Below, in pieces: positions 3,301 through 62,704 of a stretch of 64,000 nt of DNA (the first letter of the stretch is position 1; each line of letters begins with the position of its first letter). Location of the stretch: assembly GCF_036588685.1 (NCBI RefSeq), contig NC_086373.1:41540001-41604000 (forward strand), read 5' to 3'. Made by a program: the position numbers and the translations under genes. Source of the stretch: Mytilus trossulus (Eukaryota). A model generated the notes under the pieces. It was not told where the DNA came from, made no database searches, and worked only from the letters and a program-made list of their open reading frames with translations.

Positions 3301-6300
3301 ACCAATCTACAAATCTAACGCATGATGTGGCAAAGACTAGCGACACTTTTCACAAGAAATATAACAATAAAAATATATTCTTAGTTATAGTGAAAAGTAC
3401 AATTTTTTTTGTGAAATTGGTAGCAGAAGATGTAGAAAAGAAAAATTAGCCTCATTAACTGCTGAAAACTTATTACCCAGCCAAAATTTATCAATTGCCT
3501 TACAGGGGGTTATTTTCCCTTGGTGTAAATTTTTGTTTTTTTTCAAAATAAGTTCTGCCAATTTAAAGTGCAGATGCAATGGTATTGATAAAAGTTTGAA
3601 TTTGCCAAAATTATATTGGCCATGTTGACCCCCAAAATATTTTGTATATCTTATTCAATGACAATCTCAAATATTTAAATCCCTGAAAATAACCTGCTAT
3701 ATATACTGGATATATATACAATGGGAAGACTTTGCAACATCAGCAGGTCATCTCAAAAGTTTTATCTTACACATAAAGTGTCAAAATTCAAACATATAAA
3801 GGGTCTAAAGCTCATCATGGAAATGGGTCTGGAACTTGTATACCAAATCTCTATTTGGCATTGACTAGTATATCATTAACTTTTTCTGCCTACCCAATGC
3901 ACAATCTAGAGAGGGCAAGTTATATCTGTTTCATGTTTCATCTATACTGCAATTTTGACACTTAAGTTCAAATATATTTCTGAAGACTTTATTCTGCAAC
4001 AGTAGAAATTTTTTATCTATCTTAAATTCTTATTCCACAATTATTTGAAAATTTTCTTTAAACAAAAAATAACATACACATGGCAATTTCCTATTTCAGC
4101 AGAGATTGACCCTGAGTCTGAGTTACATGTATATTATTACAACATATCAATAAAAATATAAAACTCTACATAATGAAAGCTTTGAAGATGATCGTGAAAG
4201 CTCTAACCTATGAACCATTAAGCTATACTGCTGTGAATTATGAAGTACAAATAAAACGAGGTTGAAAATATATCTGCCTTTAACTGTTTGGAAATTTTGG
4301 CCTTGAATGCTCTTCAACTTTTTATATTCTTGGGTTTTTCAACATCTTAGATTGGACCATCAATTATGAGTCTTTCATAGAGGAAACAAGTGTCTGGCTT
4401 ATAAGTTTTAATCTTGGTACCAATGGTGAGTCTTTCTACACGCTGTACATATAAAATCTAACATTTTTAAAATTGAAAAAATATTACTATATTAACATTC
4501 TACTACATGTATTGCTAACTCGATTTATCACTGTATATTGTGCATATTTGATGGAGACTCTATTTGAGCTGCTATTTACATTTGTTTTAGTATTGACATA
4601 TATAAATAAGTTCAAAAATTAATTTCTAGCAAATAAGTAGACTGTAAGTGAAAATAAATTGTCTCAAACATGTCAAACAAAAACCTTCTATTGAATTATT
4701 TCAATAAAAAGAATGTGTCCCCGGTACAAGGATACTCCACTCCCATTATCATTTTCTATGTTCAGTGGACCGTGAAATTAGGGTCAGAACTCTAATTTGG
4801 AATTAAAGTTAGAAAGATTATATCATAAGGAACATGTATACTAAGTTTCAGGTTGATTAGATTGCATCAACAACTACGGACTTGACCAAAAACTTTTACC
4901 TGAAGCAGGACAGACAAACGAACAGACGGACGAAGGGACAGAGGCACAGACTAGAAAGCATAATGCTCCTCTACTGTTGTAGGTGGGGCATATAAAAACC
5001 TAAACCTTCTCTGGAATTATGAAGATAAAAATTTCAAATAATAAATGACAGCTTAAATTGCCTTGTACATGTTGTAGGACTAAATGTGAAAAAAAATTAA
5101 GCGATGTGATATGGTATAATATGATTCAAACAAATAAATAAGCAATTAAGCACTCTAGCACAACCAAAAAAGTTCCTGCATTGCACATTTTGTTCTAGAC
5201 AAATTTTACTGATACCTTTCTCTTTTAGTTCTTGTTTATTCCTATTACTCTCATTGTGTTTACTCTCATCACCTTGTAATTTTGTATTTTGATCATCCGT
5301 TTCTGCAAAATTGTTTGGTTTTTCTGAGTTCTGGTTACCATTGCTATCATGACTATTATTAGGGTTTGACAGGGGACCAGCAATTTGTGTCTCCATGTTT
5401 GTTATATCTGATTCTGAAATGTTTTAAATACAAATTACTGTAAATGGTCAAAGGTTTTACTGACATGACTGAGAACATTCCTTCTAAAGATAAATGATAA
5501 AATCCAGATAAAAGATTCAAATGAAACAGACAGTATATATGTGAACTTGAAAGCATAATAGTGCTAAATACTCGCTGATTAAAAATGTGAAAATAGCACA
5601 AAAATTAAAGAAAGACCATTCTCAGTCAAGCAGTTTGAGACGGAAGAAAGATCAATGAAAATTCAAGATAGTTGATAAAAAAATTTTTTTATATATAATA
5701 AGATGTGGTATAATTGCAAATGAACCAATTACTCACAATCATCAACCATGTGACAAACAAATATATCTTTGGAAAAAAATAATAATTGTATATTAACATC
5801 AGCTACTATAGATCACTTTGCAGACATGATTTTTGTATTGAATCAAATATTTAAGAAGATCATGAAGATTGTAATCAGTCCCTTCTTTAAAAGGAAGATT
5901 TAAGATACACTTGATTTAAAGTGGAACACAGGTGTAACAACTTTATAAAAAAAAAAACAACACCCACACTTATTGTTACATGATCCATTTTTTTTAAATC
6001 TTCTACTGACATTTCAACATTTATAAATAAATTTACATGGACTGTATTAACTACTTTGAGCTATTTATATCTTTCAAAATATAATTCTAGTGGTTATGTA
6101 ATTTACTTACTAACATAAGAAAACAATTGTGTATAAGACCCTATTATAACTTCCAGAGGCTGCTTAAGTCAGTCTTGTTAAGAAGGAAAAGGAATTGGGA
6201 AAAATTTATACTAATATCTATTCATCATTCAGAATACTATCCCTTGTCATTTGGACATACAGTTCCATACCTTGTAATTCACTGCTCTTCTTATCTGTTA

Positions 6301-9300
6301 GCCCTTGATCCCCATTGTCATTGGGACCAGAAAGTCCATTGTCTTCTGGTTCAACAGTTTTTTTATCTTCTAGATTTGGGCTCTCCTTGTCTACTGTTCT
6401 AGTATCTTCATGGCCTTGCGATCCATCACTCTCATGACCTCCCATCCCTGTACCAACCTTGTCATCTGGACCAATTGGTTCATTACTATGTGGTTTGTCA
6501 ATCACTTGATCTGGCAGCACTGGACTATCATTGTCTACTGGGCTAGAAAATGTACTGCTCTGCAGCTCACCAGTCTGTTGATCTGTAAGCCTAGGACTTT
6601 CCTCTTTCACAAGAGAAGTGTGACAATTGTTCTGCGGCTCACCAGTCTGTTGATCTAGTAACCCTGGACTAGCCTGTCCACCTCCTTGTGGTACACCACT
6701 CTGTTGATTGGTCAGTTTCAAACCCTCATTGTCTATTTTTGGAGCACAGTCTTTTCCAGTTTCTAAAGTCTTCATATCTTGTACATCAGTAGCATTCATT
6801 GGAACATTCAGTTCAATCTGAGCAGGATTCATTTGGCTACCAATCTGCTGTACACTTTCTATAAAAATGAAACATAATTTCAATTTACATGTTGATTGTG
6901 CAAATTCTTGCAAAAATAGGTATACAGTAATGTAATCAGTTGCTCTTTCTACCTGAAAATGTTTTTTTGAATTCTTTTCATTTTTCCTTCTTAGGTTGCA
7001 TATTGGCCATGTTGGCATTTATTGGATTTTTTTTTATTATGCCTTTGATCCTACTCCCTAACATTCTTTAGATCATGGACAGGATTTGGAATTTAGATTA
7101 AATATAAGGTAATAATGCAAAGAAACAATAACGCAATACCACAATTTCATATCAGTCCTTGTCTATTATCAATGAATGCATCTTCATTCATACAATCAAG
7201 CAACTATATCAGTATATATGCAACACTCAGAAACGTGTCCTTCCCCCCAAAAGTGTCCAATTCACCCAAATGTGTCCACATTCAGTGATATTGTCTTTCT
7301 TAAATTAGTGGAGAATACAGGCTTTTTCACCTGGAGAAGAATCTTAATTTGAAAAAAAAATGGCTTAAAATTATTCCTCAACAGACAACTTTTTTCCCAA
7401 ACAGTGCAGTCTCAGTAGTAATTGTGCATGAATACAAACTGAAAAACACTCATTTCAACATTTTTCTTGCCTAAAATGACTATATCTGCACATTTGAGGG
7501 TCTATTTATGTATAATCACTGACAAAATGGGGTCTTATTTTAAAGCTGGGTTTGGCTCTTGAAAATTGGTCTGTAAATAGAAGTTTTAGTCAAATTCATG
7601 GTTTATTTTAAATTTCCCAATAAAAAAGGGTAGAGGTAGTTTTGAAAAAAAGCCAACAATATCACTGACATTGACGTCACTGAACTGCAAAACATGTCTA
7701 GTTAAAAACATCGCCAAAGTGTGTGATTTGTAGAAATGCCCAAACGTGTACATTTCTCAACTAACCCCCAAACGTGTCCAAATCAAGCAGTTATTGCTAT
7801 TTCATTAACATATACTAATTCTACCATTTTGACCTATTATGTCTGCTTACATATATAAGAAATGATATAATTGCAATGTTTTATACACATGAAATAGTTA
7901 TACTACTGTAAATTCAGAAATTATTGCGAGGTTTTTATTATTGCGAATATTGCGACAGAATTGTAAACGCAATAATTAAAACTCGCATTTTGTAATATTT
8001 TAACTGAATAAAGCATGACTTTTCACAAAATCGTAAAAATTAAAATCGCATTTAAGTTAAAATTGACAAAATCGCAATAATAAATGCACGCAATAATTTC
8101 TGAATTTACAGTAATCATTTCATTTTATTTCATATCATTAACAAAACAAATAAACATTCTGATAAAAGGAATATAATTTTACTGTAAAACTAACCAACTT
8201 TTGCAAGCTATTCATTTCCTTGACTTGAAAAATTACGTAAACAGATTGCGGCAAATATGTAAAACTTGGATCCTTTTTATTCAACTACATCAAGAAAATT
8301 TGAAAATCCAACCAAATCACTCCAAAGTAGGCTAGAAAGGGACAAATACAATATTTGTGAAACTAAGATGGTATACAGTGATCTGACTATTTTAAAATTA
8401 ACCTTTTACAGGTTCAGTTTTATTAGCATTAGATGCCAGAGGGATGGTTGGAGCTTCCCATAAATCAGGACTGCAAGATCCTGAACTGCCATGTTCTTCC
8501 TTTATGGGAGGTGTAGTATTATCTTGGTTGTCTCCCTTCTGCTGAGTAGTTTGTAAATCTAATTTTAATGGTGCATCTCCTGGTAAAACAACTGTATCTA
8601 AAATAAAAGATTAAGAATAAAAATAAAAAGAAATTAATCAAAAACAATAAGTTTCCCATCTTTGTGAGGGACACTAAAATCAAATTGAACAAAAATGCAT
8701 GTCTTTACTTAAAATTCACAGAACTGGTAAATAGGAAGTAGGTGTTTTATAAATTAGAGATCTAAAAAGAGCACAAACAATGCAACCTTCACTATGACTA
8801 TAAATTTTGAAATCTGTTCTATTGGTTTAAGTTAATGAGAAAAGTTGTGAAAGTGTGATAACAAATTTTAAGTCAAATATAGTTCAACATATATTGGAAA
8901 TTTAAAATATTTGCAGATACGAAACAGTCAAAACATATAATAACTTTGTTCATCGGCTGGCATGAAATATAATATATCTTCCAACAATACTGTAATGTAC
9001 TCAAAATGTTTAATGGGTGTTGTTTTTAATAAGGATTGTCTGTTCAATTTTGTGAAAACAAAGTAAATAACAAGCGTCTTCTTGACTGAATGTGCATACA
9101 AATTCTTAACTTACTGCTTGTATCATGTGTATTAGAAGTGTCTTGAAGGGTTCCACAAGATGTGCAGAACTTAGTACCAGAAGTCAGCACTGTGTTACAC
9201 TTCTGCCCATTGTCTTTAGTACCATGGCAAATTTTGTCAATAAATAGAGCAGGGTCAATTTTTCCTCCACAGCTCTGACAGAATTTGCATCCTATGACTA

Positions 9301-9430
9301 CAATGTCATTACAAGATGGACAAAGTGTTGTCTTAACAGGAACTGGAGACTGTACTTCAGTACCACAACCGGTGCAGAATCTGGCTCCTGCAGGAATCTT
9401 GGCTCCACAGGATTCATGTGTGCATTTCAT
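380..9430 (-). CDS. 5' part of a multi-exon gene: N-terminal tandem zinc ribbons plus acidic low-complexity region; probable RNF213-like (mysterin-like) E3 ligase, continuing beyond the left edge of the window
   Basis: Coding exons (minus strand) 9430-9115, 8597-8403, 6858-6271, 5413-5216, 3212-3090, 1984-1743, 1477-1334, 559-380. All have AG/GT borders and compatible phases (1,1,1,1,1,0,0,0), and together give 662 stop-free codons. The N-terminus MKCTHESCGAKIPAGARFCTGCG...CPSC...FCQSCG...FCTSCG resembles the MxCPxC...KFCSQCG start of RNF213. No AAA+ or RING domain lies inside the window, so the family call is inference. Confidence 0.6.
4705..4998. mobile_element. Pearl/HINE-like (Helentron-type non-autonomous) repeat with GACA/GACG microsatellite
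   Basis: Core repeat followed by ggacagacaaacgaacagacggacg, a short terminal hairpin and an A-rich end, the architecture typical of bivalve pearl-like elements. Confidence 0.45.
6271..6858 (-). CDS. Internal 588-nt exon of the RNF213-like gene, with degenerate repeats (SPxLxDQQTGExQ)
   Basis: tttttatAG acceptor at 6859, GTATGG donor at 6270, phase 1-1; lies within ORF 6218..7018. Confidence 0.8.
7283..7667. mobile_element. Non-autonomous DNA transposon, 12-bp TIR CAGTGATATTGT, 5-bp TSD ACATT
   Basis: TIRs at 7283-7294 and 7656-7667; ACATT at 7278-7282 and 7668-7672. Confidence 0.75.
7906..8111. mobile_element. TA-flanked MITE (TIR CTGTAAATTCAGAAATTATTGCG)
   Basis: Perfect ~23-bp TIRs flanked by TA on both sides; related copy at 46354-46547. 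Confidence 0.85.
9115..9430 (-). CDS. First coding exon, three zinc-ribbon-like (CxxC...FCxxCG) units
   Basis: Acceptor ttttatttcAG ending at 9459, ATG at 9430, donor GTAAGT at 9114; three FCxxCG motifs. Confidence 0.85.
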
Positions 9431-9996
9431 TTTAGTTGATATATGACCTAGCTTCCACCTGAAATAAAAATAACCCAGATTAATAATATTATCACTATAT
9501 ATTTATTAGTGTTGTCAAATCGTATAGTTTTGACTAACTGGTAAAGTTCTCAGATAATCGATTGACCAGTTAACAGGTAGTTCAAGTTAACGACTGAAGG
9601 TGGATACAGAAATTTGCAAAAGGGAGGGGTGCAAGAGACTTCCTAGGAGGGTGTCTGCTCCAGTCATGCTTCAGTGATTCCCTAAATTATCAAACAAATT
9701 TTCCCCCAAAAAAGGGGGGATGGTCCACTTAATTAATTTAAAAATAGAAATTATCAGTGAAAATTAGTTCGGCCCGATTTTATTTCCTATATTTATTTCA
9801 GGAGACCTTTTTTCACAGATAGTCATATTTTGAATTTCTAGCAAGATTAATAGTTCATGACATTACGTCAGTCTTTAGAACTTGAAAGTACATAAAAATG
9901 TATATAATTCTTTGATGAGTTTACTATTATTTTATAAAAAGTAAAGGCTGGAATTAGAAAGAGACAAAACAATCAGCAATATTAGATACAATTATG

Positions 9997-23489: not shown

Positions 23490-25229
23490 CTATCCGAGAT
23501 ATCCTTTAGACGGCTTTCTACGGCAAATCCTATGGCAACCAACAGTGGCACAGAATTTGGTTGTTGGACAATCTCCATCACTAAAACAGTCGTTTTTGCA
23601 ATCAGTTTTTCCTCCTACAACTGACTGAGCAACGACTCCTGAACCTGAAGTACGAATTGAACCACCACGTCTGGAAGAACCAGTGTCTAGTCCACCTCGT
23701 CCAGCGCTGATTGAGTCGAGGATTTCAGAACCTGAATGACCAGACCCTCCACGTCTACTACCTATGGTTTCCAAATGAGAACTGCTAGAGAGATCAAAAT
23801 TTCTATCCAGACCAGATGTACCAATTCTGCTGCCAGATGACATATGATCATCATTGCTTGAAACTCTGGTCAAGCCAGATGATGAACTTCTAGAAGAAAT
23901 ATCGACACAGTAACTGCTACAACCATCATGTACACATTTATGTCCTGAACGACACAACTTGTCATCTCCACACCCATAATGACAATTACTGATACTGTCA
24001 TCGTCAGACAAAACACGAGACAAACCAGTTGAGGAGCCCCTTGATCCAGAGGTCCTGCTTCCAACAGAACCACCAGACAAGCCTAAACTGTCTGATGATC
24101 CGTGTGTTACAAATTCACTGCCTATTCCATGAGATGTTTCAACTCTACTTGATCCTGCTCGTCTATTTGCATCAATAACATCCAGCACAGAAAGGGATTC
24201 ACCATCACGACGCCCGTTTCTGTTTCTTCCAATTGTGTTTTCCAATCCATGTCTATCTAATGCATGTTTTTCCTTTGGTGCATATACTGTAAATTCAAAT
24301 ATATGACATTTTATATAGTTTTCTGGTTCAAGAGAGAGTTTTAGCGAGACTTTAAAACAGGAATAATCGACCATTTTCCAAATGCCTGTACCAAGTCAGG
24401 AATATGACAGTTTTCATCAATACCCTTGATGTGTTTGAGCTTTTGATTTTGCCATTTGATAAGGCACGTACCGTGTTTGATTTTCGTCGGAGTTCAATAT
24501 TTTTGTTATTTTACGTTTTTCACATAATAATATATGCACCTGTCCTAAGTCAGGAATCTGATGTACAGTAGTTGTCGTTTGTTTATGTAATATATACGTG
24601 TTTCTCGTTTAGTTTATATAGACTAGACCGTTGGTTTTTCCCGTTTGAATGGTTTTACACTAGTAATTTTGGGGCCCTTTATAGCTTGTTGTTCGGTGTG
24701 AGCCAAGGCTCTGTGTTGAAGGCCGTACTTTAACCTATAATGGTTTACTTTTTAAATTGTTTCTTGGATGGAGAGTTGTCTCATTGGCACTCACACCCCA
24801 TCTTCCTATATCTATATAGTATTTCAAAAACAATAGATATGAACTTTATATAGATATAAAGGTTGTTTTTTTGCCAAAAAGATAAATATCCACTATTTAT
24901 CAAAGTACCTTTAAACAGTACAAACACTCATCAAAACCCATATCGTACTTTAAGCTATAAAGGAACCATTATAACAAAAGGCAAAACTATTACAAAAGAT
25001 AACTATTTGTTTTAAGGTATTTTATTAAAGTTTTCATGAATTTGTGCTGAAATTGTATCTTTCTAAAGATTTTTCTGCGGTAAGATATAAATATATTTAA
25101 TCTCAATATCAACAAACTTTTGGTAAAGCAGCCTATATATCTCGTGCATGTAAATTGAATATTTTTCTTACCGGCTACTGTCATTGTGGTCAATGCCATC
25201 GAGAAGAGAAAGGTCTGAAATTTCATCAT
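23490..25229 (-). CDS. Cluster gene 1: secreted Ser/Gly/Arg-rich protein with two 6-Cys WAP-like modules (284 aa)
   Basis: Exon 2 coding part 25229-25172 (MMKFQTFLFSMALTTMTVA signal peptide, G|GTAAG); exon 3 24286-23490 (acAG|TATATGCA). Non-coding exon 1 ~26871-26830; TATAAAA at 26901-26895. Confidence 0.9.
24535..24815. mobile_element. Abundant SINE-like dispersed repeat (…GGAGAGTTGTCTCATTGGCACTCACACCACATCTT… family) in gene 1 intron 2
   Basis: The same motif recurs at ~735-830, 17757-17860, 32070-32365, 48536-48582 and 63400-63495. Confidence 0.7.
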
Positions 25230-25988: not shown

Positions 25989-27610
25989 TTCAACAAAATC
26001 TTGATTTTTTTTAGGTTTGATTGTTTTTGAGCTACAGGTTGTCAAAATTTATTATTCTGTAAGAATTCTTTCTCCAAAAGGCATTTTTATGAAATTAATA
26101 CTAAAAATTTGACTTTAAGTATCTAAATTCTTTCAACGGATATTACGCAAGACTAAAACCCAACCAAGCTAAATATTGATATTGCATATTAATAAATCGA
26201 GAACTTATAGTTCCAATTTATATTAAAATTATTACGTTTCAGAACAATTGGATAGAACTTACAAATTAAAAATTGATTCACGAATCGAAAAATAAAGAAA
26301 AGAGCTTAAAGAAAAATAGCAACACCTTTCACTGAATTCTTAGAGATGCACATCTTTTTTCTTTGTGAATGAATATTTTAAATCTTTTAGCAAAATGTAA
26401 AGAGTAACTTCAACGTCTCAAATAATTATTTAAGTTGGCTTTTAATTTCCGACAGATATTAAAACAAAGTAAAAATCTTCTTGTGTGCCAATTAAATGTA
26501 TACTTCGAATCAGTTGTTTTCTAGAATAAACATACAAATGTGTCTTTTACCTTTCAGTCATCTAAATCGATACATAAATGTTGAACACTGCACAATTTTC
26601 GATACACTTGTCTTTCTGAAATCATTACATATTTAAATTTCTTTCTAACAAGTGAGCAATATCATTTTTTTACATACAGCAAATGCATCAAGTTTAGACA
26701 AACCGTACCTTATGAACTTTAACAATTCTTTTTATAATTCTTTTTATTTTATCTAGCTCACTTTTGCATTCTTGTTGTTTACATTCGTTTATAATATATA
26801 TATATATCTATGCTAAAACATGGTCTTACCTTTGTTTAAAGCAATTGAAATATTAAGTGGAACTGAATAGTGTTTTGCTGCTTCCGAAATGTTCTTTTAT
26901 ACCATTTTCAATTAGTTTTTCCTTTAAATGACGTACACACAAGGAAACATGTAACTAAACCGCAAATGATGAATTTGTTAAATGTATTCGAACTCTTTTA
27001 ATGTCACAAATGTCATATTTCTATAAAATTGTGGATTATGCTTAATTTTTTAGGTGTACTAAGGGCGAAATTACACTTACTTTGTCTTTCAACAGCAAAC
27101 ATATTTGTCATTATGTCATTATACATGTAGTTATTACGAAATATCGCTTTGACTTATTATCAATTTGGTAAAATATGCACGTTATTATTTTCGTTCTAAT
27201 CAGAGACATGTACTGTTTTAATTAAACCTAACCAGAAGCCTTTATTTCATTATTATATGGACGTTATTACGTTTCAGTTAGAATTGTTTGAAAACCACTG
27301 TGTTTAGAAACACAGCTTTTATTTAGACATATAACATAACATCTGATTCGAACAGGTTTGGACGTACGTTAAAAAGCAGGACGAGCACGATTTTTAGCTA
27401 AAAACCAAACGAATGAACATTTAGAAAAATAGTGTTTCAGATAGAGACGAACTTTCTGCTCCACATATGGCATACGTCATGTTGCTTATGAAAAAACACA
27501 ATGTTGGCTTAGTTTAAATCATTGGGGGAAAAGTAGAGGTACCGACCATCGTATTACTTTTAGAAAAACACACATAATTAGAAAATTAGGACCTTGTAAT
27601 ACACACATAA

Positions 27611-30600
27611 ACTGACTGCTGGGAAAGACCGGCTGACAACCAAGAATAGAATGGTGACGTCTGGAGAGACAGATGGCATTCAGGGAAGACTGAAACAAGG
27701 GTGTGAAGGGTTGGCATCCCAACACACTGTTCCTGTGAAGGAACACCATACCAAGCTACAGAACAGAATAAAGAGCAATACCCCCAGGGTCTTCCGAGAG
27801 GGGGGGAGGATGAAAGACCCATTGAGCAGGACAAAACGGTAACAACTCGGCTAATCCAACGGACTTTGACTGGAACAACGGCAGAAACCAAGTGTCATTG
27901 TGGAAAAGTTTGCAAGAACTTAAAAGGTTTCAAGATACACCAGGCAAGAACTAAGTGTGGATCTGGGAAGCAGCAAAGGGAACGCACAGTTAACACTGAT
28001 GAGACGGCGGAGGACCACAGCAAGGAAGCACACCACAGTGCTGAGGACCTCTTACCTAATGAAGCTACTCAGATCAACATTGAGGAGGAGCAAGGGAATC
28101 GAAACCAGCAGAAACCAGCGAAAACACCATCGACAGACAGCAGGAAAGAAAAGATACAATGGCCAGCAACAGATGATAAGAGATGGGAGATCTTTGACGA
28201 AGACCTAGATAAGATCTTAGATAACACACTAACAGGAGATGTACAGAGAAAGATATCATCATTGTCAACACTTATATATGCAGTAGGACAAGAAAGATTT
28301 GGAGGCAGTAACATCAAAACAAGAGAAAGCACTCTGGGTAACAGCAAACATAACAGACGTCAACAAGAAATACAAACACTCAGAACTGAAATAAGCGATG
28401 TCACTAAACAGTATAAAAGAGCAAATGAGGAGGAGAAAGAAGGATTGAATGAGCTAAGATCAATTCTGAGGGAAAGAAGAAACAATCTACAAAGAGCAGA
28501 AAGAATTAGAAAAGCTAGGAAGGAAAGAGGGAAGAAGAGAGCAATGTTTGTGGCCAACCCATATAAGTTTACCAAAGCAACACTGGACGGAACAAAGGCG
28601 GGATCAGTAAAAAGCTCAAAAGAGGAAGTGGAAAAACATCTACCAGAGACGCACAGTGACGAAAGGCAGTGGGCACATCTAGGTAACTGTGAAAGGATAG
28701 AGAATGTGCCAGAACCAGAGATACCAATGAACATTAAGGAACCATCATGGAAAGAAGTATCAGATGTTGTAAAGAAAGCCAGGTCTGCATCATCACCAGG
28801 ACCAAATGGCATCCCGTACAAAAGATATAAGCAGTGTCCAAAGATTTTGAAACACCTGTGGAGGCTACTGAAAGTGGTGTGGAGGAAAGGGAAGATACCA
28901 TCATGTTGGCAGAAAGCAGAGGGGTGTTTTATTCCAAAAGAGGAAAAATCAGAAGACATCACACAATTTAGAACTATTTCCCTCCTGAATGTAGAAGGAA
29001 AGATCTTTTTCTCTATTATGGCTAGAAGGATGACATCATATATGACAGATAACAACTATGTAGACACTTCAGTACAGAAGGGCGGAATACCAGGATTCTC
29101 AGGATGCATTGAACATACAAGCATCATTTCACAACTGATTCAAGAGGCCAAAGTAAACAAGAAAGATCTTACAGTAGTATGGCTAGATTTGGCAAACGCA
29201 TATGGCACTATTCCTCACATGCTGATACAGGAGTCACTAGACCATTATCATATTCCCGACCACTTTAAGAAAGTAATAAGAAGCTATCTCAGTGGGATTG
29301 AGCTGCGATTTACAACGAGCACATTCACAACAACATGGCAGAAACTACAAAAAGGAATAGTTACTGGATGTACCATCTCAGTTATTTTGTTTGTCATGGG
29401 AATGAATATGATTATTAAATCTGGAGAGAGAGAAACTAGAGGCCAAAAAACATCAACTGACATTAGGCAACCACCAAATAGAGGGTTTATGGACGATTTA
29501 ACCATCACCACAGATACTCATGTCCAGGCTAGATGGGTGTTGAAGGCTTTGGAAGAGACAGTTACATGGGCAAGGATGGCTTTTAAACCAAGGAAGTCTA
29601 GAGCTTTAATAATAAGGAAAGGGAAGAGCACACACCAAGTCGAACTGAAGGTGCAAGGGGAAGTCATTCCATCAATAATAGACAATCCTATCAAGTGCTT
29701 AGGAAAGTGGTATGATGACTCTCTTAGTGACAAGAACAATATCAGGAAAATCGAACAACAGGTTTCAGAGGGAATGAGGAACATCGATAAGACAGGTCTA
29801 CCAGGGAAATTAAAGGCATGGATATACCAACATGGACTCCTGCCAAGGATATCATGGCCACTTATGTTGTACGAAATTACATTATCAACAGTTGAGAAGC
29901 TTGAAAGAACCATCAACAGACATCTAAGGAAATGGTTAGGTGTCCCTCCAAGTTTTACAACTGTAGGACTGTACAGCAGGACCGCAAAGTTGCAGCTCCC
30001 ATTAACATCTATAGTGGAAGAATTCAAAGTATGCAAAACTCGCCTTGTAATGACATTGAAAGAATCAAAAGACGACAAAGTAAGAACAGCAGGTGTCCAA
30101 GTAAGAACAGGACGAAAGTGGTCAGCATCAAAAGCAGTTTCAGAGGCAGAGAGTAGATTAAGGCACAAAGATATCATAGGAACGGTGGCAGTAGGAAGAC
30201 AGGGCCTTGGAACATCAAAATGTTGCTACTGGAAAAACGCTAACACTAAAGAAAGACGAAGTTTAGTTCAAAGAGAGGTAAAATCTAGAGAAGAAGAGAA
30301 CAGACAAGCAAAGACAGTAGAATTAGGGTGCCAAGGCGCATGGTCAAGATGGGATTTAGAACAACGATCCCTCACATGGTCAGAAATATGGCGATATCCT
30401 CAGTACCAATTACAGTTTCTTCTGAGATCAGTGTATGATGTGTTACCAACACCATCTAATCTGCACAGGTGGAAACTATCAGAAACACCAGATTGTCCCT
30501 TGTGCGGAAATAGAGGAACACTTCATCATGTACTTTCAGGATGCAATATCGCTCTCACACAGGGGAGATATACATGGCGACACAACCAAGTACTCAGGGA

Positions 30601-31290
30601 ACTTGCTGAAGTGATAGAGAAACAGAGGAGAGATGCAAAACAAACTAAGAACAAACCTATGAAAATCCAGTTTGTGAAGGAGGGGGAAATAGGCCAGAAA
30701 AGTAAACAGAACACATCAGGAATGTTACATCAGGCTAAAGACTGGCAGCTAGAAGTAGATCTAGGGAAAAAGCTGCAATTTCCGGACATTGTACAAACCA
30801 ACCTAAGACCAGACATGGTTCTATGGTCTTCCGGCAGTAAAAAGGTTATGATAATTGAGCTGACTGTTCCCTGGGAGGAGAGATGTGGCGAAGCCAATGA
30901 AAGAAAGAGGGCAAAGTATGACGAACTATTGGCAGAATGTAGAGATAAAGGATGGCAGACATGGAACTTTCCTGTTGAGGTTGGCTGCATAGGCTTCCCT
31001 GCACAGTCAGTGTGGCGGTTGCTTTCTGCAGTAGGAGTGACTGGCCGGCAAAGAAGAACAGCAATACAGAAACTAGGCCAAGCAGCAGAGAAAGCGTCTT
31101 GCTGGATATGGATGAAAAGAGACAGTAGTAGCTGGAAACCCACCACCAATGCGCAGTGATTGATCACCACTGTGGACCCCCCGTCCTGAGAGTGTACCGA
31201 GCTAGGGGTCGAAACACACGATGACGGATGGCCTCGGCTGAGGACATTGGCGGTGTTTGCAGTAATTCCATCAGTACTGTATGTAAGTAA
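27611..31290 (+). mobile_element. Full-length RLE-type non-LTR retrotransposon (R2 group; HERO-like clade)
   Basis: Single long ORF plus a GC-richer structured 5' leader and a pseudoknot-forming 3' UTR. Boundaries are approximate and no clear TSD was found. Confidence 0.85.
27866..31159 (+). CDS. Reverse transcriptase / restriction-like endonuclease polyprotein
   Basis: N-terminal zinc finger CHCGKVCKNLKGFKIHQARTKC; RT motifs SPGPNGI, FRTISLL, WLDLANAYG, GIVTGCTIS, FMDD; CCHC knuckle CPLCGNRGTLHHVLSGC; RLE motifs RHN...RPD...IELTVPWE...KRAKY. No internal stops; the frame is open from 27707. Confidence 0.95.
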   Translation: MTGTTAETKCHCGKVCKNLKGFKIHQARTKCGSGKQQRERTVNTDETAEDHSKEAHHSAEDLLPNEATQINIEEEQGNRNQQKPAKTPSTDSRKEKIQWPATDDKRWEIFDEDLDKILDNTLTGDVQRKISSLSTLIYAVGQERFGGSNIKTRESTLGNSKHNRRQQEIQTLRTEISDVTKQYKRANEEEKEGLNELRSILRERRNNLQRAERIRKARKERGKKRAMFVANPYKFTKATLDGTKAGSVKSSKEEVEKHLPETHSDERQWAHLGNCERIENVPEPEIPMNIKEPSWKEVSDVVKKARSASSPGPNGIPYKRYKQCPKILKHLWRLLKVVWRKGKIPSCWQKAEGCFIPKEEKSEDITQFRTISLLNVEGKIFFSIMARRMTSYMTDNNYVDTSVQKGGIPGFSGCIEHTSIISQLIQEAKVNKKDLTVVWLDLANAYGTIPHMLIQESLDHYHIPDHFKKVIRSYLSGIELRFTTSTFTTTWQKLQKGIVTGCTISVILFVMGMNMIIKSGERETRGQKTSTDIRQPPNRGFMDDLTITTDTHVQARWVLKALEETVTWARMAFKPRKSRALIIRKGKSTHQVELKVQGEVIPSIIDNPIKCLGKWYDDSLSDKNNIRKIEQQVSEGMRNIDKTGLPGKLKAWIYQHGLLPRISWPLMLYEITLSTVEKLERTINRHLRKWLGVPPSFTTVGLYSRTAKLQLPLTSIVEEFKVCKTRLVMTLKESKDDKVRTAGVQVRTGRKWSASKAVSEAESRLRHKDIIGTVAVGRQGLGTSKCCYWKNANTKERRSLVQREVKSREEENRQAKTVELGCQGAWSRWDLEQRSLTWSEIWRYPQYQLQFLLRSVYDVLPTPSNLHRWKLSETPDCPLCGNRGTLHHVLSGCNIALTQGRYTWRHNQVLRELAEVIEKQRRDAKQTKNKPMKIQFVKEGEIGQKSKQNTSGMLHQAKDWQLEVDLGKKLQFPDIVQTNLRPDMVLWSSGSKKVMIIELTVPWEERCGEANERKRAKYDELLAECRDKGWQTWNFPVEVGCIGFPAQSVWRLLSAVGVTGRQRRTAIQKLGQAAEKASCWIWMKRDSSSWKPTTNAQ

Positions 31291-38310: not shown

Positions 38311-39678
38311 TCATGGTGTGTATCCTTTGGAACGTCTTCTTCTACAAATCATGTGACAATTAACAGATGCACAGTATTTGCTAGTTGGACAATCTGAATC
38401 GAGATGGCAGTCTGTTTTGCAACCAGTCTTTCCTCCTAACACTGACTGAAACGCGACTCCTAAACCAGCAGCACTAACTGATCCGCTTCTTCTTAAAGAA
38501 ACTGTGTCCAACACATCTAGCCCATTTCGTCTAGAGGTAATTGCGCCAAGAATATCGGAACCTGTATGACTAGACCCTCCACGGCTACTACCAATAGTTT
38601 CCAAATGACCATTCCTAGATAGATCTAAATTTCTGGCCAAACCAGATGAACCAATTCGACTGCCGGAGGATAAATGACCATCATTACTTGAAACCCTGGT
38701 CAAGACAGATGATGACCCTGTGTTTCCCCTTCTGAAAGAGTCTGATAATCTAGATGAACCAATGATGCTTCCAGAAGAAATTTCGACGCAGTAGCTGCTA
38801 CAGCCATCATGTACACATTTATGTCCCATACGACATAACTTGTCATCTCCACACCCATAATGACAGTCACTGTCGTCGTCAGATAAAGACCGAGACAAAC
38901 CAGCTATAGAGCCTCTAGATGCAAATGTCCTGCTTCCAACAGAATCCCTGGGCAGTCCTCTACCGGCTGATGACCCGTGTGTTAGAAATTCATTTCCTAT
39001 TCCATGCGATGTTCCAGCTCTTGATCCTGCTCGTCTATTTGCATCAATGACATCCAGGACAGAAAGAGATCCACCACCACGACCACCGTTTATGTTTCTC
39101 CCAACTGTGTTTTCAACCAGCAAAACCTTTTCTACTCCATGTCTGTCTAATGCATGTTTGTCTGTGGGTGCGTAGACTATAAAATAAATATTTGACCTGT
39201 TATATTTCACAAATCTTGAAATACAGAACAATAAAAATTAACTCTTGTTTATATGTAAGTATAAGGTTTCTGGGATTTTTACCAATGATATCAACTAAGG
39301 ATTAAATGACTAGAATGTTATCAACTTAAGGGAAAGTACGGCTTCGGCACAGATGTATGCTTCTTTCGTGTAATAAGCTATAAAAGACTTCATATGAAAA
39401 ATGTGAACCAATTCAAAAAGAAAAAAAACTTTTGAGAAATGTTCTTTCATAATAGTCAAAAATATGTAGATGTAAGTAAATATCTTCTTAAGTATTGAAA
39501 TTATATCTTTTTAAAGATTTTTTTATTGTAAGTCATTTAGATTTTTGTATCTTCACACAAAACCACTTCTGTCAAAATAGTCTGGAAACTCGCAGGAAGC
39601 GATTCGAATATTTTACATACCGGCTAGTGTTACTGTTGTCAATGCAATCAAAAAGAAAATAGCCTGGAATCGCATCAT
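38311..39678 (-). CDS. Cluster gene 2 (subtype B): secreted Ser/Gly/Arg-rich protein with two 6-Cys WAP-like modules (307 aa)
   Basis: Exon 2 coding part 39678-39621 (MMRFQAIFFLIALTTVTLA); exon 3 39176-38311. Exon 1 ~40127-40089; TATAAAA at 40157-40151. Confidence 0.9.
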
Positions 39679-43752: not shown

Positions 43753-44787
43753 ATGACATTCCAGACCATTTTCGTGTTGATGGCATTGGCCACAATAACA
43801 GCAGCCGGTAAGAAAAATGTTCAATTATTTTAAGTCGAAATTTATTATTGTATCAAATAAAAGTATTTTCATTTTGTAGATAACATTTAAAAAATAACAC
43901 AGAATTTTCTGATATTTCCGAACCGGAACAGTCTATGCAATTGCTTTCAACAACGTTCTTTTGCTCAAAGTGTGTAGTTGTTTTATTTGTGATGATACTT
44001 GATATTATTGTATTGTTATAAAAAGAAAAATCACCAGTATTTTGTTCCAATAAATCAATTCATGAAAATCAAATAAATTGTCAGATATTCAATTTTTACA
44101 GTATATGCACCCTCAGATAAGCATGCATTAGATAGACATGGAGTGGAAAAGGTTTTACTGGTCGAAAACACAGTTGGTAGAAACATAAACAGGCATCGTA
44201 GTGACGGATCTCTTTCTGCACTGGATGTTATTGATGCAAATAGACGAGCAGGATCAAGAAATGTTGGAACATCTAACGGAATAGGCAGTGAATTTATTAC
44301 ACACGGGTCATCTTCCGGTAGAGGATTGTCTGGGGCTTCTGTTGGTGGCAGGACCTCTGTAGCTGGAAGTATTAGAGGCTCTTCAATTGGTTTGCCCCGT
44401 GCTTTATCTGACGATGATGATCATTTCACCTCTGGCAGCCGAATTGGTTCATCTGGTCTGGCTAGAAATGTGGATCTGACTAGAAATTTTCATTTGGAAA
44501 CGATTGGTAGTGGCCATGGAGTGTCTGGTCATTCGGGTGCAGATATTCTTGACGCAATCAGTTCTGGACGAGGTGGGCGTGTTGTACTAGACACTGTTTC
44601 TAGCAGACGTAGTGGATCAGGTCGTACTTCTGGTTCAGGACTAAATTCTCAGTCAGTGGTAGGAGGAAAAACTGAGTGCAAAAACGACTGTTTTAGTGAT
44701 GGAGATTGTCCAACAAACAGGTACTGTGCCACTGTTAATTGTCACAGGATTTGTAGAAGAAGACTGTCTAATGGATACTCACCATGA
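43753..44787 (+). CDS. Cluster gene 3 (subtype A): secreted Ser/Gly/Arg-rich protein with one C-terminal 6-Cys WAP-like module (246 aa)
   Basis: Exon 2 coding part 43753-43807 (MTFQTIFVLMALATITAA); exon 3 44102-44787; phase-1 intron. Confidence 0.9.
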
Positions 44788-48606: not shown

Positions 48607-49790
48607 TCATGATGAGTATCCATTTGATAATCTTCTTCTACAAATTCTGTGACAATTAACAGTGGCACAGTATCTGATTGTTGGACAATCTCCATCACTA
48701 AAACAGTCGTTTTTGCAATCAGTTTTTCCTCCTACCACTGACTGAGAAACGAATCCTGAACCTGAAGTACGTGCTGATCCACTACGTCTGGAAGAAACAG
48801 TGTCTAGTACAACACTCCCACCTCGTCTTGAACTGATTGCGTCAAGAATATCTGCACCTGAATGACCAGACACTCCATGGCCACTACCAAGAGTTTCCAA
48901 ATGAGAATTTCTGGACAGATCAACATTTCTAGCCAGACCAGATGAACCAATTCGGCTACCAGAGGTGAAATGATCATCATCGCCAGATAAAGCACGGGGC
49001 AAACCAATTGAAGAACCTCTTATGATTCCAGATACAGAGGTTCTGCCTCTAACAGTAGCCCCAGATAATCCCCTACCGGAAGATGACCCGTGTGTTATAA
49101 ATTCACTGCCTATTCCATGAGATGTTGCAACTCCTCCTGATCCTGCTCGTCTATTTGCATCAATAACATCCAGTACTGAAAGAAATCCTTCACCACGACG
49201 CCTGTTTATGTTTCTACCAACTGTGTTTTCCACCAATAACACCTTCTCCACTCCATGTATATCCAATGCATGTTTGTCTGTGGGTGCATATACTGTAAAA
49301 TGAATATTTGACGTGTTATAATTTTAACAAATCTAGTAATACAAAAAAAAACAACTTTTGTTGATACGTGGATATTAGGATAACTGATAGTTTTACTAAT
49401 TTGATTACCATACCCTTTAGATGAAATGACTAGAATGTTATCAAGTGCAGGGAACGTACGGTTTCAGGACAGATGTAGGCTCATACTGTATAGTAAGCTA
49501 TAAAAGACTCCACATGACAAATATGAATCAATTAAAAAAAAAAACAGAAAACGTTTTGTGAAATTTTCTTTTATGTATACAAATGTATGCAGATGTTAGA
49601 AATAAACCCTCTTATGTACAAAAAATATATCCTTTTGAAAATTGTATTATGATAAGGTATTGGGAATTTTGTATCTTAACACCCAAATTATTTTATAAAA
49701 ACATTCTTTAAACTCACATTAAATTTACTTACCGGCTACTGTTATTGTGGTCAATGCCATTAAAATGAAAATGGTTTGGAATCTCATCAT
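48607..49790 (-). CDS. Cluster gene 4 (subtype B 5' region): secreted Ser/Gly/Arg-rich protein, one WAP-like module (247 aa)
   Basis: Exon 2 coding part 49790-49733 (MMRFQTIFILMALTTITVA); exon 3 49292-48607. Exon 1 ~50351-50313; TATAAAA at 50381-50375. Confidence 0.9.
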
Positions 49791-54202: not shown

Positions 54203-55453
54203 ATGATGACATTCCAGACCATTTTCGTTTTGATGGCATTGGCCACAATAACAGCAGCCGGTAAGAAAAATATTCAATGTGTTTTAGTCGAAATTTATAA
54301 ACTGTATCAAATAAAAGTCTTTTCATTATAAAATTTAAAAAAAAACCACAGAATGTTAAGATATTTCCAAAACCGAACAGTCTCTGCAATGGCTTACAAC
54401 AACGTTATTTTGCTAAAACTGTGTGGTTGTTTAATTTGCGATAATAATTGATATTTTTGTATTGTTAAATAAAAAAAAATCACCAGTATTTTTTTCCCCA
54501 ATTACTGTGGATTCATTTATTTTCGTGGGAACCAATTTTCGTGGTTTGAGGTGAACTTACATATTCGTGGATATTTTTTTTCGTTGTTTTGGTAAAGTCA
54601 ACACTAATTACTTAGAAAATTTGTTATTCGTTGAACATTTGAATTCGTGGTTCTCCTGTACCCACGAAATCTACGAAAACTGGTATCCAACGAATATTAA
54701 TGAATCCACAGTAATCAACTCATGAAAATCACATAAATTGTCAGATATTCAATATTTACAGTATATGCACCCTCGGATAAGCATGCATTAGATAGACATG
54801 GAGTGGAGAAAGTTTTACTGGTCGAAAACACAGTTGGTACAAACATAAACAGGCGTCGTGGTGACGGATCTCTTTCTGTACTGGATATTATTGATGCAAA
54901 TAGACGAGCAGGATCAAGAAATGTTGGAACATCTCATGGAATAGGCAGTGAGTTTATTACACACGGGTCATCTTCCGGTAGAGGATTTTCTGGAGCTTCA
55001 GTTGGTGGCAGGACCTCTGTATCTGGAAGCATAAGAGGCTCTTCAATTGGTTTGTCCCGTGCTTTATCTGACGATGATGATCATTTCACGTCTGGTAGCC
55101 GAATTGCTTCATCTGGTCTAGCTAGAAATTTGGATCTGTCAAGAAACTCTCATTTGGAAACTATTGGTATTGGTAGTGGCCATGGAGTGTCTGGTCATTC
55201 AGGTGCAGATATTCTTGACGCAATCAGTTCTGGACGAAGTGGGCGTGTTGTACTGGACACTGTGTCTTCAAGACGTAGTTTATCAGCACGTACTTCAGGT
55301 TCAGGATTCGGTTCTCAGTCAGTGATAGGAGGAAAAACTGATTGCAAAAACGACTGTTTTAGTGATGGAGATTGTCCAACAAATAGATACTGTGCCACTG
55401 TTAATTGTCACAGAATTTGCAGAAGAAGACTGTCTAATGGATACTCATCATGA
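54203..55453 (+). CDS. Cluster gene 5 (subtype A): secreted Ser/Gly/Arg-rich protein, one WAP-like module (249 aa)
   Basis: Exon 2 coding part 54203-54260; exon 3 54762-55453. Exon 1 ~53664-53701; TATAAAA at 53634-53640. Confidence 0.9.
54505..54711. mobile_element. TA-target MITE in gene 5 intron 2
   Basis: TIR CTGTGGATTCATT / AATGAATCCACAG. The empty site CCAATTAATCAAC in gene 6 intron 2 (~58077-58091) shows TA duplication. Degenerate relative at ~2747-2940. Confidence 0.9.
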
Positions 55454-57351: not shown

Positions 57352-58395
57352 TCATGATGAGTATCCATTTGAAAGTCTTCTTCTGCAAATTCTGTGACAA
57401 TTAACAGTGGCACAGTATCTGTTTGTTGGACAATCTCCATCACTAAAACAGTCGTTTTTACAATCAGTTTTTCCTCCTATTACTGACTGAGAAACGAATC
57501 CTGAACCTGAGGTATGTGCTGATCCACTACGTCTTGCAGAAACAGTGTCTAGTACAATACGCCCTCCTCGTCTAGAACTGATTGCGTCAAGATTATCTGC
57601 ACCTGGATGACCAGACACTCCATGGCCACTACCAATAGTTTTCAAATGAGATTTTCTTGACAGATCCAAATTTCTAGACAGACCAGATGAACCAATTCGG
57701 CTACCAGACGTGAAATGATCATCATCGTCAGATAAAGCACGGGACAAACCAATCGAGGAGCCTCTAATGCTTCCAGATACAGAGGTCCTTCCACCAACTG
57801 AAGCTCCAGACAATCCTCTACCGGAAGATGACCCGTGTGTAATAAACTCACTACCTATTCCATGAGATGTTCCAACATTTCTTGATTCCGCACGTCTATT
57901 TGCATCAATAACATCCAGTACTGAAAGAGATCCGTCACCACGACGCCTGTTTATGTTTCTACCAACTGTGTTTTCGACCAGTAAAAGTTTCTCCATTCCA
58001 TGTCTGTCAAGTGCATGCTTTTCCGAGGGTGCATATACTGAAAAATTGAATATCTGACAATTTATGTGATTTTCATGCGTTGATTAATTGGAAAAAAAAA
58101 TACTGGTGATTTTTTTTTTATTTAACAATACAATAATATCAATTATTATCGCCAATAAAACAACTACACACTTTTAGCAAAAGAACGTTGTTGTAAGGCA
58201 TTGCAGAGACTGTTCGATTTCGGAAATATCTTAACATTCTTTGTTATTTTTTTTTAAATGTTATCTACACAAGGAAAACACCTCTATTTGATACAGTTTA
58301 CATATTTCGACTAAAACACATTGAACATTTTTCTTACCGGCTGCTGTTATTGTGGCCAATGCAATCAAAACGAAAATGGTCTGGAATGTCATCAT
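57352..58395 (-). CDS. Cluster gene 6 (subtype A): secreted Ser/Gly/Arg-rich protein, one WAP-like module (247 aa)
   Basis: Exon 2 coding part 58395-58338; exon 3 58037-57352. Exon 1 ~59048-59011; TATAAAA at 59078-59072. Confidence 0.9.
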
Positions 58396-61521: not shown

Positions 61522-62704
61522 ATGATGAGATTCCAAACCATTTTCATTTTAATGGCTTTGACCACAATAACAGTAGCTGGTAAGTAAATTTACTGTGGGT
61601 TTATAGTATGTTTTTATAAAAACAATTTGGGTGTTGAGATACAAAATTCCCAATACCTTACCATAATACAATTTTCAAAAAGATATAATTTCTGTACATA
61701 AGAGGGTTAATTACTAACATCTACGTATGTTTGTATACATAAAAGAAAAATTCACAAATTTCTGTTTTTTTTTTAAATTGATTCATATTTGTCATGTGGA
61801 GTCTTTAAAAGCTTACTATACAGTATGAGCCTACATCTGTCCTGAAATCGTACGTTCCCTGCAGTTGATTACATTCTAGTCATTTCATTTTAAGTTTAAG
61901 GTAATCAAATTGGTAAAAAAAACACATTTTCTAATATCTACGTATCAACAAATTTTTTTTTTGTTGTATATTAACTAGATTTGTGAAAATTATAACACGT
62001 CAAATATTCATTTTACAGTATATGCACCAACAGACAAACATGCATTAGACAGACATGGAGTAGCAAAAGTTTTTCTGGATGAACACACAGTTGGAAGAAA
62101 CATAAACAGGCGTCGTGGTGATGGATCTCTTTCTGTACTGGATGTTATTGATGCAAATAGACGAGCAGGATCAAGAGGAGTTGCAACATCTCATGGAATA
62201 GGCAGTGAGTTTATTACACATGGGTCATCTTCCGGTAGAGGATTATCTGGAGTTTCAGTTGGTGGCAGGACCGCTGTATCTGGAAGCATTAGAGGCTCTT
62301 CAATTGGTTTGTCCCGTGCTTTATCTGACGCTAATGATCAGTTCACGTCTGGTAGCCGAATTGGTTCATCTGGTCTGGCTAGAAATTTGGATCTGTCAAG
62401 AAATTCTCATTTGGAAACTATTGGTAGTGGCCATGGAGTGTCTGGTCATTCGGGTGCAGATATTCCTGACGCAATCAGTTCTGGACGAGGTGGGCGTGTT
62501 GTACTAGACACTGTTTCTGCCAGACGGAGTGGATCAGCACGTACTTCAGGTTCAGGAGTCGTTTCTCAGTCAGTGCTAGGAGGAAACACTGTTTGCAAAA
62601 ACGACTGTTTTAGTGATGGAGATTGTCCAACAAACAGATACTGTGCCACTGTAAATTGTCACAGAATTTGCAGAAGAAGACTGTCAAATGGATACTCATC
62701 ATGA
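61522..62704 (+). CDS. Cluster gene 7 (subtype B 5' region): secreted Ser/Gly/Arg-rich protein, one WAP-like module (247 aa)
   Basis: Exon 2 coding part 61522-61579 (MMRFQTIFILMALTTITVA); exon 3 62019-62704, open and in frame with ORF 62309..62704. Exon 1 ~61054-61092; TATAAAA at 61024-61030. Confidence 0.9.

Follow-up and report, generated by a model that had tools for sequence, protein, structure and literature searches.

Predicted three-disulfide WAP modules lacking the C1–C6 pair in a clustered gene family of the mussel Mytilus trossulus

The window analyzed here is a stretch of 64,000 nucleotides of Mytilus trossulus contig NC_086373.1 (positions 41,540,001 to 41,604,000; coordinates below count from its first letter). 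A two-exon gene on its minus strand encodes a Gly/Ser/Arg-rich product of 284 aa. The coding part of exon 1 (25172..25229; 58 nt, 19 codons plus one base) was assigned from translation and spliced contigs, and is separated by a phase-1 intron of 885 nt with GT..AG ends (24287..25171) from the coding part of exon 2 (23490..24286; Ser 20%, Gly 16%, Arg 9.5%), which adds 264 aa after the split codon and contains two six-cysteine modules. Both modules lie within a 301-codon open frame on the minus strand at 23490-24395. The join between 24286 and 25172 is present in contigs of two of the four sequencing runs examined (X5 and X7), indicating that the window gene, or a very close relative, is transcribed and spliced; these runs carry neither an RNA record nor tissue labels, and contig depth cannot rank the genes. 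The N-terminus encoded by exon 1 is conserved between paralogs and recurs in the homolog P0001. Its hydrophobic 19 residues, judged by eye, resemble a signal peptide, and the protein is likely to be secreted. The closest homolog, from Mytilus edulis, has the same length (284 aa) and is 89% identical. In the full-length AlphaFold model, 194 of 264 residues have a pLDDT below 50 and only the two modules fold; the exon 2 chain outside them is predicted to be disordered. A hydrophobic-Leu-Asp/Glu-x-Ile motif, a candidate self-assembly sticker, is present in three to five copies in the disordered linkers of window exon 2 and of P0001, P0054, P0066 and P0095.

The spacing C-x3-C-x5-C-x5-C-x4-C-x3-C, claimed in a preliminary description of this DNA, is exact in both the internal module (23907-23984, minus strand) and the C-terminal module (23523-23600, minus strand). 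Their cysteines correspond to WAP C2, C3, C4, C5, C7 and C8. The same description had placed Ala or Val at the C6 position and found C1 missing; indeed, the C6 position holds Val in the internal and Ala in the C-terminal module, and the 25 residues preceding each module contain no Cys. The C-terminal module alone contains an S-D-x-D-C-P-like stretch and is followed by a short basic tail. Each module comprises 26 residues, compared with 40-50 for a WAP domain. The strict spacing pattern occurs nine times within the window, spread over seven paralogous genes, against a chance expectation of 6e-5 and no match in 200 shuffles (six-frame translation).

The exon-2 open frames of the other six paralogs are located at 38314..39237 (minus strand), with two modules (38788-38865 and 38344-38421), and at 44077..44784 (plus), 48610..49323 (minus), 54737..55450 (plus), 57355..58083 (minus) and 61979..62701 (plus), each with the C-terminal module only (44677-44754, 48640-48717, 55343-55420, 57385-57462 and 62594-62671, respectively). 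The internal module was lost by clean deletion in five of the seven paralogs. The seven genes (23490-62701) mostly alternate in strand (-, -, +, -, +, -, +), and their flanks are duplicated over 1-2.5 kb with 85-90% identity, an arrangement that suggests repeated inverted duplication. All seven paralogs are preceded, some 1.6 kb ahead of the start codon, by a block of 350-530 nt with ~70% conservation (26778-27300 for the window gene). This block, parts of which are covered by contigs of run X5, may be a promoter or a first exon without coding sequence. Two genes of the cluster are separated by an inserted non-LTR retrotransposon, an uninterrupted 1150-codon frame at 27707-31159 (plus strand) with matches to RVT_1 (E 4e-19) and zf-RVT. 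At 1671-9502 (minus strand), a number of open frames of acidic or low-complexity composition, plus one with repeated C-x2-C pairs (9047-9502), are probably exons of an unrelated neighboring gene.

The paralogs belong to a cluster of about 41 related loci over 0.54 Mb, a number that is a lower bound because only parts of the region were retrieved. A genome search yielded 41 matches, 40 of them on the contig of the window at 41.31-41.85 Mb, corresponding to 37 loci; four further loci were added from the retrieved cluster stretches. Contig C5 gave a weak match (E 1.7) that contains no module. Exon 2 is complete in 24 of the 30 closest loci. The other six (L012, L020, L023, L024, L026 and L029) have no full exon-2 frame, owing to a stop, a frameshift or an altered start, and are likely pseudogenes; L024 in addition has substitutions at two of the module's Cys positions. 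The C-terminal module is almost invariant among close paralogs: dN/dS for 19 of them is 0.18 in this module and 0.40 in the linkers, while for all 24 intact paralogs the values (0.46 and 0.50) are barely apart, the pairs in both comparisons not being independent. Locus L031 (4424-6373 of its retrieved stretch) has a 650-codon frame with one eight-cysteine WAP domain followed by 11 six-cysteine modules, and its database relatives are labeled keratin-associated or prion-like. Loci at the left end of the cluster (41.31-41.40 Mb; L032-L037, L041, L043 and L044) harbor extra Cys motifs beside the six-cysteine module: a four-Cys C-x3-C-x7-C-x3-C motif, a C-terminal six-Cys motif whose spacing is shifted, and, in a frame of 956 codons, units of the 3-5-5-3-3 type.

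The preliminary description had interpreted the module as a WAP four-disulfide core from which C1 and C6, the two partners of one bond, are missing together. This interpretation is supported by the best Pfam match, eight-cysteine relatives in the cluster, residues at WAP-type positions, the predicted hairpin and the fold matches. Exon 2 of L031, L039 and L042 opens with a full eight-cysteine WAP domain and continues with six-cysteine modules, and the window gene aligns to L039 with 42% over 165 aa (E 6e-28), linkers included. The retrieved cluster loci contain 76 modules, 67 with the exact 3-5-5-4-3 spacing. Three of the 76 have a Cys at C6, and all three also have an upstream C1 of the C-P type; the remaining 73 have no C1 of their own, the upstream Cys flagged in six rows belonging to the previous module or to an intron. 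The K-x-G-x-C-P arm that carries C1 is absent before both window modules and, within the cluster, precedes only the three eight-cysteine domains. In the homologs, 106 strict modules were found in 58 out of 63 proteins, none with a Cys at C6, and 60 of the 63 have no Cys outside the modules, so that no orphan Cys remains. Among 51 mussel modules, the fifth Cys is preceded by Gly (63%) or Asn (25%), together 88%, and the last Cys by a hydrophobic or aromatic residue in 92%. Gly stands just before C7 in 82% of 152 canonical WAP domains, whereas in chained DPY/EB-like arrays with the same spacing it lies one place earlier (65% of 34).

For a waprin, the putative WAP pairing is reported to be 1-6, 2-7, 3-5, 4-8 (PMC13030222); under this scheme, loss of C1 and C6 amounts to loss of a single bond, which leaves 1-5, 2-4, 3-6 as the pairing expected in local numbering. 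A WAP-type fold with this pairing is very likely, the fold being predicted and the pairing deduced from the WAP scheme. A similarity test gave no signal for descent of the six-cysteine modules from the cluster's own eight-cysteine domains: the mean BLOSUM score of the mussel modules is 0.12 to these domains and 0.11 to amniote ones, and the nearest set is the cluster's domains for 25 of the 51 modules and the amniote domains for 26. In the eight-cysteine domains of the cluster, the CC pair is followed by one additional residue.

The expectation that standard WAP profiles may miss the module holds for the Pfam cut-off, which 6 of 53 modules reach approximately, but not for database naming, since 21 of 63 homologs are named 'WAP domain-containing protein' in UniRef. 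Against the PF00095 cut-off of 20.8 bits, the whole exon scores 19.9 and the C-terminal module cut out alone scores 21.1, while the internal module matches Pfam WAP with E 0.017 and three full-length homologs score 16.3-19.1 bits. At E<=1, Pfam WAP matches 49 of the 53 modules and Dumpy DPY 14. No precomputed Pfam match is listed for any of the 63 homologs. A droppable C1–C6 arm would explain why ~40 clustered mussel genes lie just under the Pfam cut-off, with their proteins labeled 'uncharacterized', 'hornerin-like' or 'keratin-associated'.

Structure prediction agrees with the proposed mini-WAP fold: the long WAP hairpin is predicted in both modules and WAP structures rank first in fold searches, with modest scores. 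The AlphaFold model of the C-terminal module is compact (pLDDT 86.5; strands 21-26 and 29-34), with Cys23 opposite Cys32 and Cys28 in the turn, that is, with the fourth Cys facing the sixth. The full-length model has the same hairpin register in both modules (internal strands 115-120 and 123-128, pLDDT about 60-74). In a Foldseek search with the C-terminal model, ranks 1-8 of 37 are chains of omwaprin, elafin and SLPI (best TM 0.69, rmsd 1.3), including structure 6atu, which we take to be elafin. In the VIA-align alignment with omwaprin (5-36 to 16-47, 32 aligned residues), the six Cys fall on C2, C3, C4, C5, C7 and C8 and the Ala falls on C6. VIA-align against 48,161 representatives returned 11 rows with Z>=2, of which ranks 1-4 are WAP domains (Z 4.3, 4.2, 4.1 and 3.0), followed by knottins and Dickkopf (Z 2.0-2.5). 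No Foldseek match had E<=0.001 and no VIA-align match had Z>=5. The best ESM Atlas matches are WAP clusters at 0.78 and 0.77, below the 0.9 lead threshold, and serve as leads only. A better match to an antistasin or EGF-like fold, named beforehand as contrary evidence, did not appear: the 22 Pfam families matched include neither, and the lone EGF-containing chain in Foldseek has E 8.6. Searched as a single sequence against solved structures, the C-terminal module gave nothing under E 0.9 (omwaprin, 4.4), whereas a profile of 53 modules matched Dumpy DPY 1OIG (E 5e-5), omwaprin (0.007) and two P-superfamily conotoxins (0.009-0.013), the latter as weak sequence matches that skip one conotoxin Cys.

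That 1OIG is the best structure match of the module profile, together with the conotoxin hits, the 14 modules matched by Pfam Dumpy_DPY and the chained Cys-rich arrays with the same six-Cys spacing, raises the main structural alternative, a DPY- or knottin-like unit, in which bonds 2-4 and 3-5 surround a short hairpin, the outer Cys either close as 1-6 or link neighbors, and the likeness to WAP is one of shared spacing. DPY-like pairing is 2-4, 3-5, and knottin pairing is 1-4, 2-5, 3-6. We consider this alternative very unlikely, as the turn Gly and the hydrophobic residue before the terminal Cys occupy WAP rather than DPY positions, the long hairpin register is predicted in both models, and full WAP domains occur within the same genes. 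WAP structures also stand above knottins in the fold searches; VIA-align omits chains under 30 residues, among them 1OIG, so that DPY was probably beyond the reach of that search, and the Foldseek rows shown do not include 1OIG either. Less probable still is that the Cys modules are cross-linking, metal-binding or redox segments of a secreted material that pair between chains and have no self-contained fold. Their isolation in disordered Gly/Ser-rich chains and the up to 11 module repeats in some members would suit such segments, but an even number of six Cys at fixed spacing without a spare Cys in 60 of 63 homologs, the compact and confident model (pLDDT 86.5) and the loss of exactly one bonded pair, which is best explained by intramolecular pairing, make this highly improbable.

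The main functional alternative retains the WAP-type fold: the cationic C-terminal module may be antimicrobial or an atypical protease inhibitor like omwaprin and crustins, perhaps after release from the low-complexity chain. Defence peptides diversify fast, whereas the C-terminal module is nearly invariant in close paralogs (dN/dS 0.18); moreover, no paired-basic site directly precedes this module, and the conserved linker makes up most of the coding length. A defence role therefore seems somewhat unlikely, despite the large and recent tandem expansion of the family, the pI of about 8.9 of the last 40 residues, the paired basic residues in the linker, and the closest structure being omwaprin, which is reported to be antibacterial (PMC13030222).

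Overall, the data are probably best explained by mini-WAP beads in a secreted, disordered chain that contributes to extracellular material and lacks elastase-type inhibition. The putative signal peptide would send the chain out of the cell, where each module may close into a three-disulfide WAP core (local 1-5, 2-4, 3-6), giving rigid beads, one to eleven per chain, in a disordered Gly/Ser/Arg-rich protein. The C1–C6 bond would tie down the arm carrying the canonical inhibitory loop, and that loop would be lost with the bond. Since the modules lack C1 and have a C2-C3 gap of three residues, they would not form the canonical loop, which makes elastase-type inhibition unlikely; on the basis of this spacing, the module is quite likely not a canonical inhibitor. 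Dozens of tandem genes that encode a long, conserved and disordered chain with rigid beads would suit a coating or a bulk material outside the cell, and we offer a matrix or coating role as a guess. Its more specific form, a matrix role in the foot and byssus or in the mantle, is a tentative proposal that we rate somewhat below even. For WAP domains in general, expansion with two foot-specific genes is reported from Perna viridis (PMC7971044), enrichment in foot and mantle rim from Mytilisepta (PMC5549309), and occurrence from shell or shell-repair studies (PMC3896809, PMC5854119, PMC3374290, PMC8194122 and PMC6641155). The cluster represents a large, conserved mussel family that is likely secreted and has no assigned job.

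The distribution of the variant was examined in two word-index searches (63 and 71 homologs), in which every homolog with a named organism is from Mytilus. The variant also exists outside mussels: amniote WFDC-like proteins carry the identical spacing. A profile of 53 modules, searched against 1.84 billion representatives, gave 264 matches at E<=0.001, and among the best 150, which are listed, the isolated six-cysteine module is found in amniote proteins, often beside eight-cysteine WAP domains. The carriers include muntjac, goat, horse, alpaca, toothed whales, kiwi, quail, peafowl, passerines and the worm-lizard Rhineura, and are annotated as WFDC3-like, WFDC2-like, whey acidic protein-like, WAP or uncharacterized. 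Two of the proteins, P0091 from alpaca and P0094 from goat, have six-cysteine modules only, with a hydrophobic N-terminus and no eight-cysteine domain. Cysteine counts were based on 21 amniote-type proteins picked by eye, 10 of which were named by look-up: a C1 motif is present for 42 of 43 domains having C6, and is missing in 33 of 40 domains without C6. Of the seven exceptions, three are the module's own first Cys and four are real or faulty gene models.

The amniote six-cysteine modules have a BLOSUM score of 1.16 to their own eight-cysteine neighbors and 0.40 to the mussel modules, which favors repeated loss. A tree of 120 module cores (25 columns), in which the amniote sequences were those retrieved by the mussel profile, gave no clear resolution, with stars on 6 of 117 inner branches, and does not reject a single origin of the six-cysteine modules (p-AU 0.95). 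Constraining the tree to a single origin improved the score by 52 log units over the free search, so that the tree establishes neither convergence nor common origin. A distinct, old three-disulfide WAP subtype common to mussels and amniotes and unnamed in the literature searched, combined with a so far unrecognized bead-on-string family of byssus, periostracum or shell encoded by the cluster, would be the most far-reaching interpretation, and we regard it as unlikely. The module would represent a minimal WAP core of 26 residues, showing that the C1–C6 bond and its arm are dispensable together in mussels and amniotes alike. It would also be a compact natural disulfide scaffold that lends itself to synthesis and testing. 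A literature search, largely without subscription journals, found no report of the mussel cluster or of a WAP domain lacking C1 and C6; the parts seen of PMC9778506 and PMC4184305 contain nothing on Cys patterns.

The mussel module shares with WAP/WFDC domains (PF00095; omwaprin 3NGG, elafin and SLPI domain 2) the spacing of C2-C5, C7 and C8, the Gly before C7 and the predicted long C-terminal hairpin in which C5 faces C8. However, WAP/WFDC domains have eight Cys, four disulfides and the K-x-G-x-C-P arm, whereas the mussel module has six Cys, neither arm nor C6, and a position among long Gly/Ser/Arg-rich linkers; as it falls outside the eight-cysteine definition, it is classed as a WAP variant. 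Antiprotease WAP domains are described with a C1-x6-C2-x8-C3 spacing and an inhibitory loop (PMC11408880). Unlike inhibitors of the elafin/SLPI type, the window modules have no C1 and a C2-C3 spacing of 3. Dumpy DPY (PF21164, 1OIG), the best sequence match among solved structures, shares the inner C-x5-C-x5-C-x4-C spacing. The DPY module has four Cys and a short hairpin with its turn between the third and fourth Cys, and lies between EGF modules; in the mussel module, by contrast, the turn is predicted at the fifth local Cys, the Gly is one place later than in chained arrays, and no EGF match was obtained. Perlwapin and other secreted WAP proteins associated with the shell or foot of molluscs are described as having ordinary WAP domains, and perlwapin is absent from the 63 and 71 homologs listed. 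To our knowledge, the pair missing from the six-cysteine WAPs of Trichuris and Trichinella is not C1/C6. According to Foth et al., WAP domains with exactly six Cys are a trichocephalid adaptation of unknown effect (PMC5012510), and Tm-WAP is described with 50-residue repeats that have six Cys (PMC6130879). The nematode and mussel proteins have in common exactly six Cys and expanded families of repeat proteins that are secreted, in the mussel probably so (PMC5012510, PMC6130879), but differ in length, with 50-residue repeats in Tm-WAP versus 26 residues in the mussel module (PMC6130879). The impact of the present description is accordingly moderate, six-cysteine WAPs having been published for whipworms (PMC5012510) and automatic annotation often giving WAP. 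The amniote WFDC-like modules have the same C-x3-C-x5-C-x5-C-x4-C-x3-C arrangement with no C6 and usually no C1, but are embedded in proteins with short linkers rather than in a Gly/Ser-rich chain.
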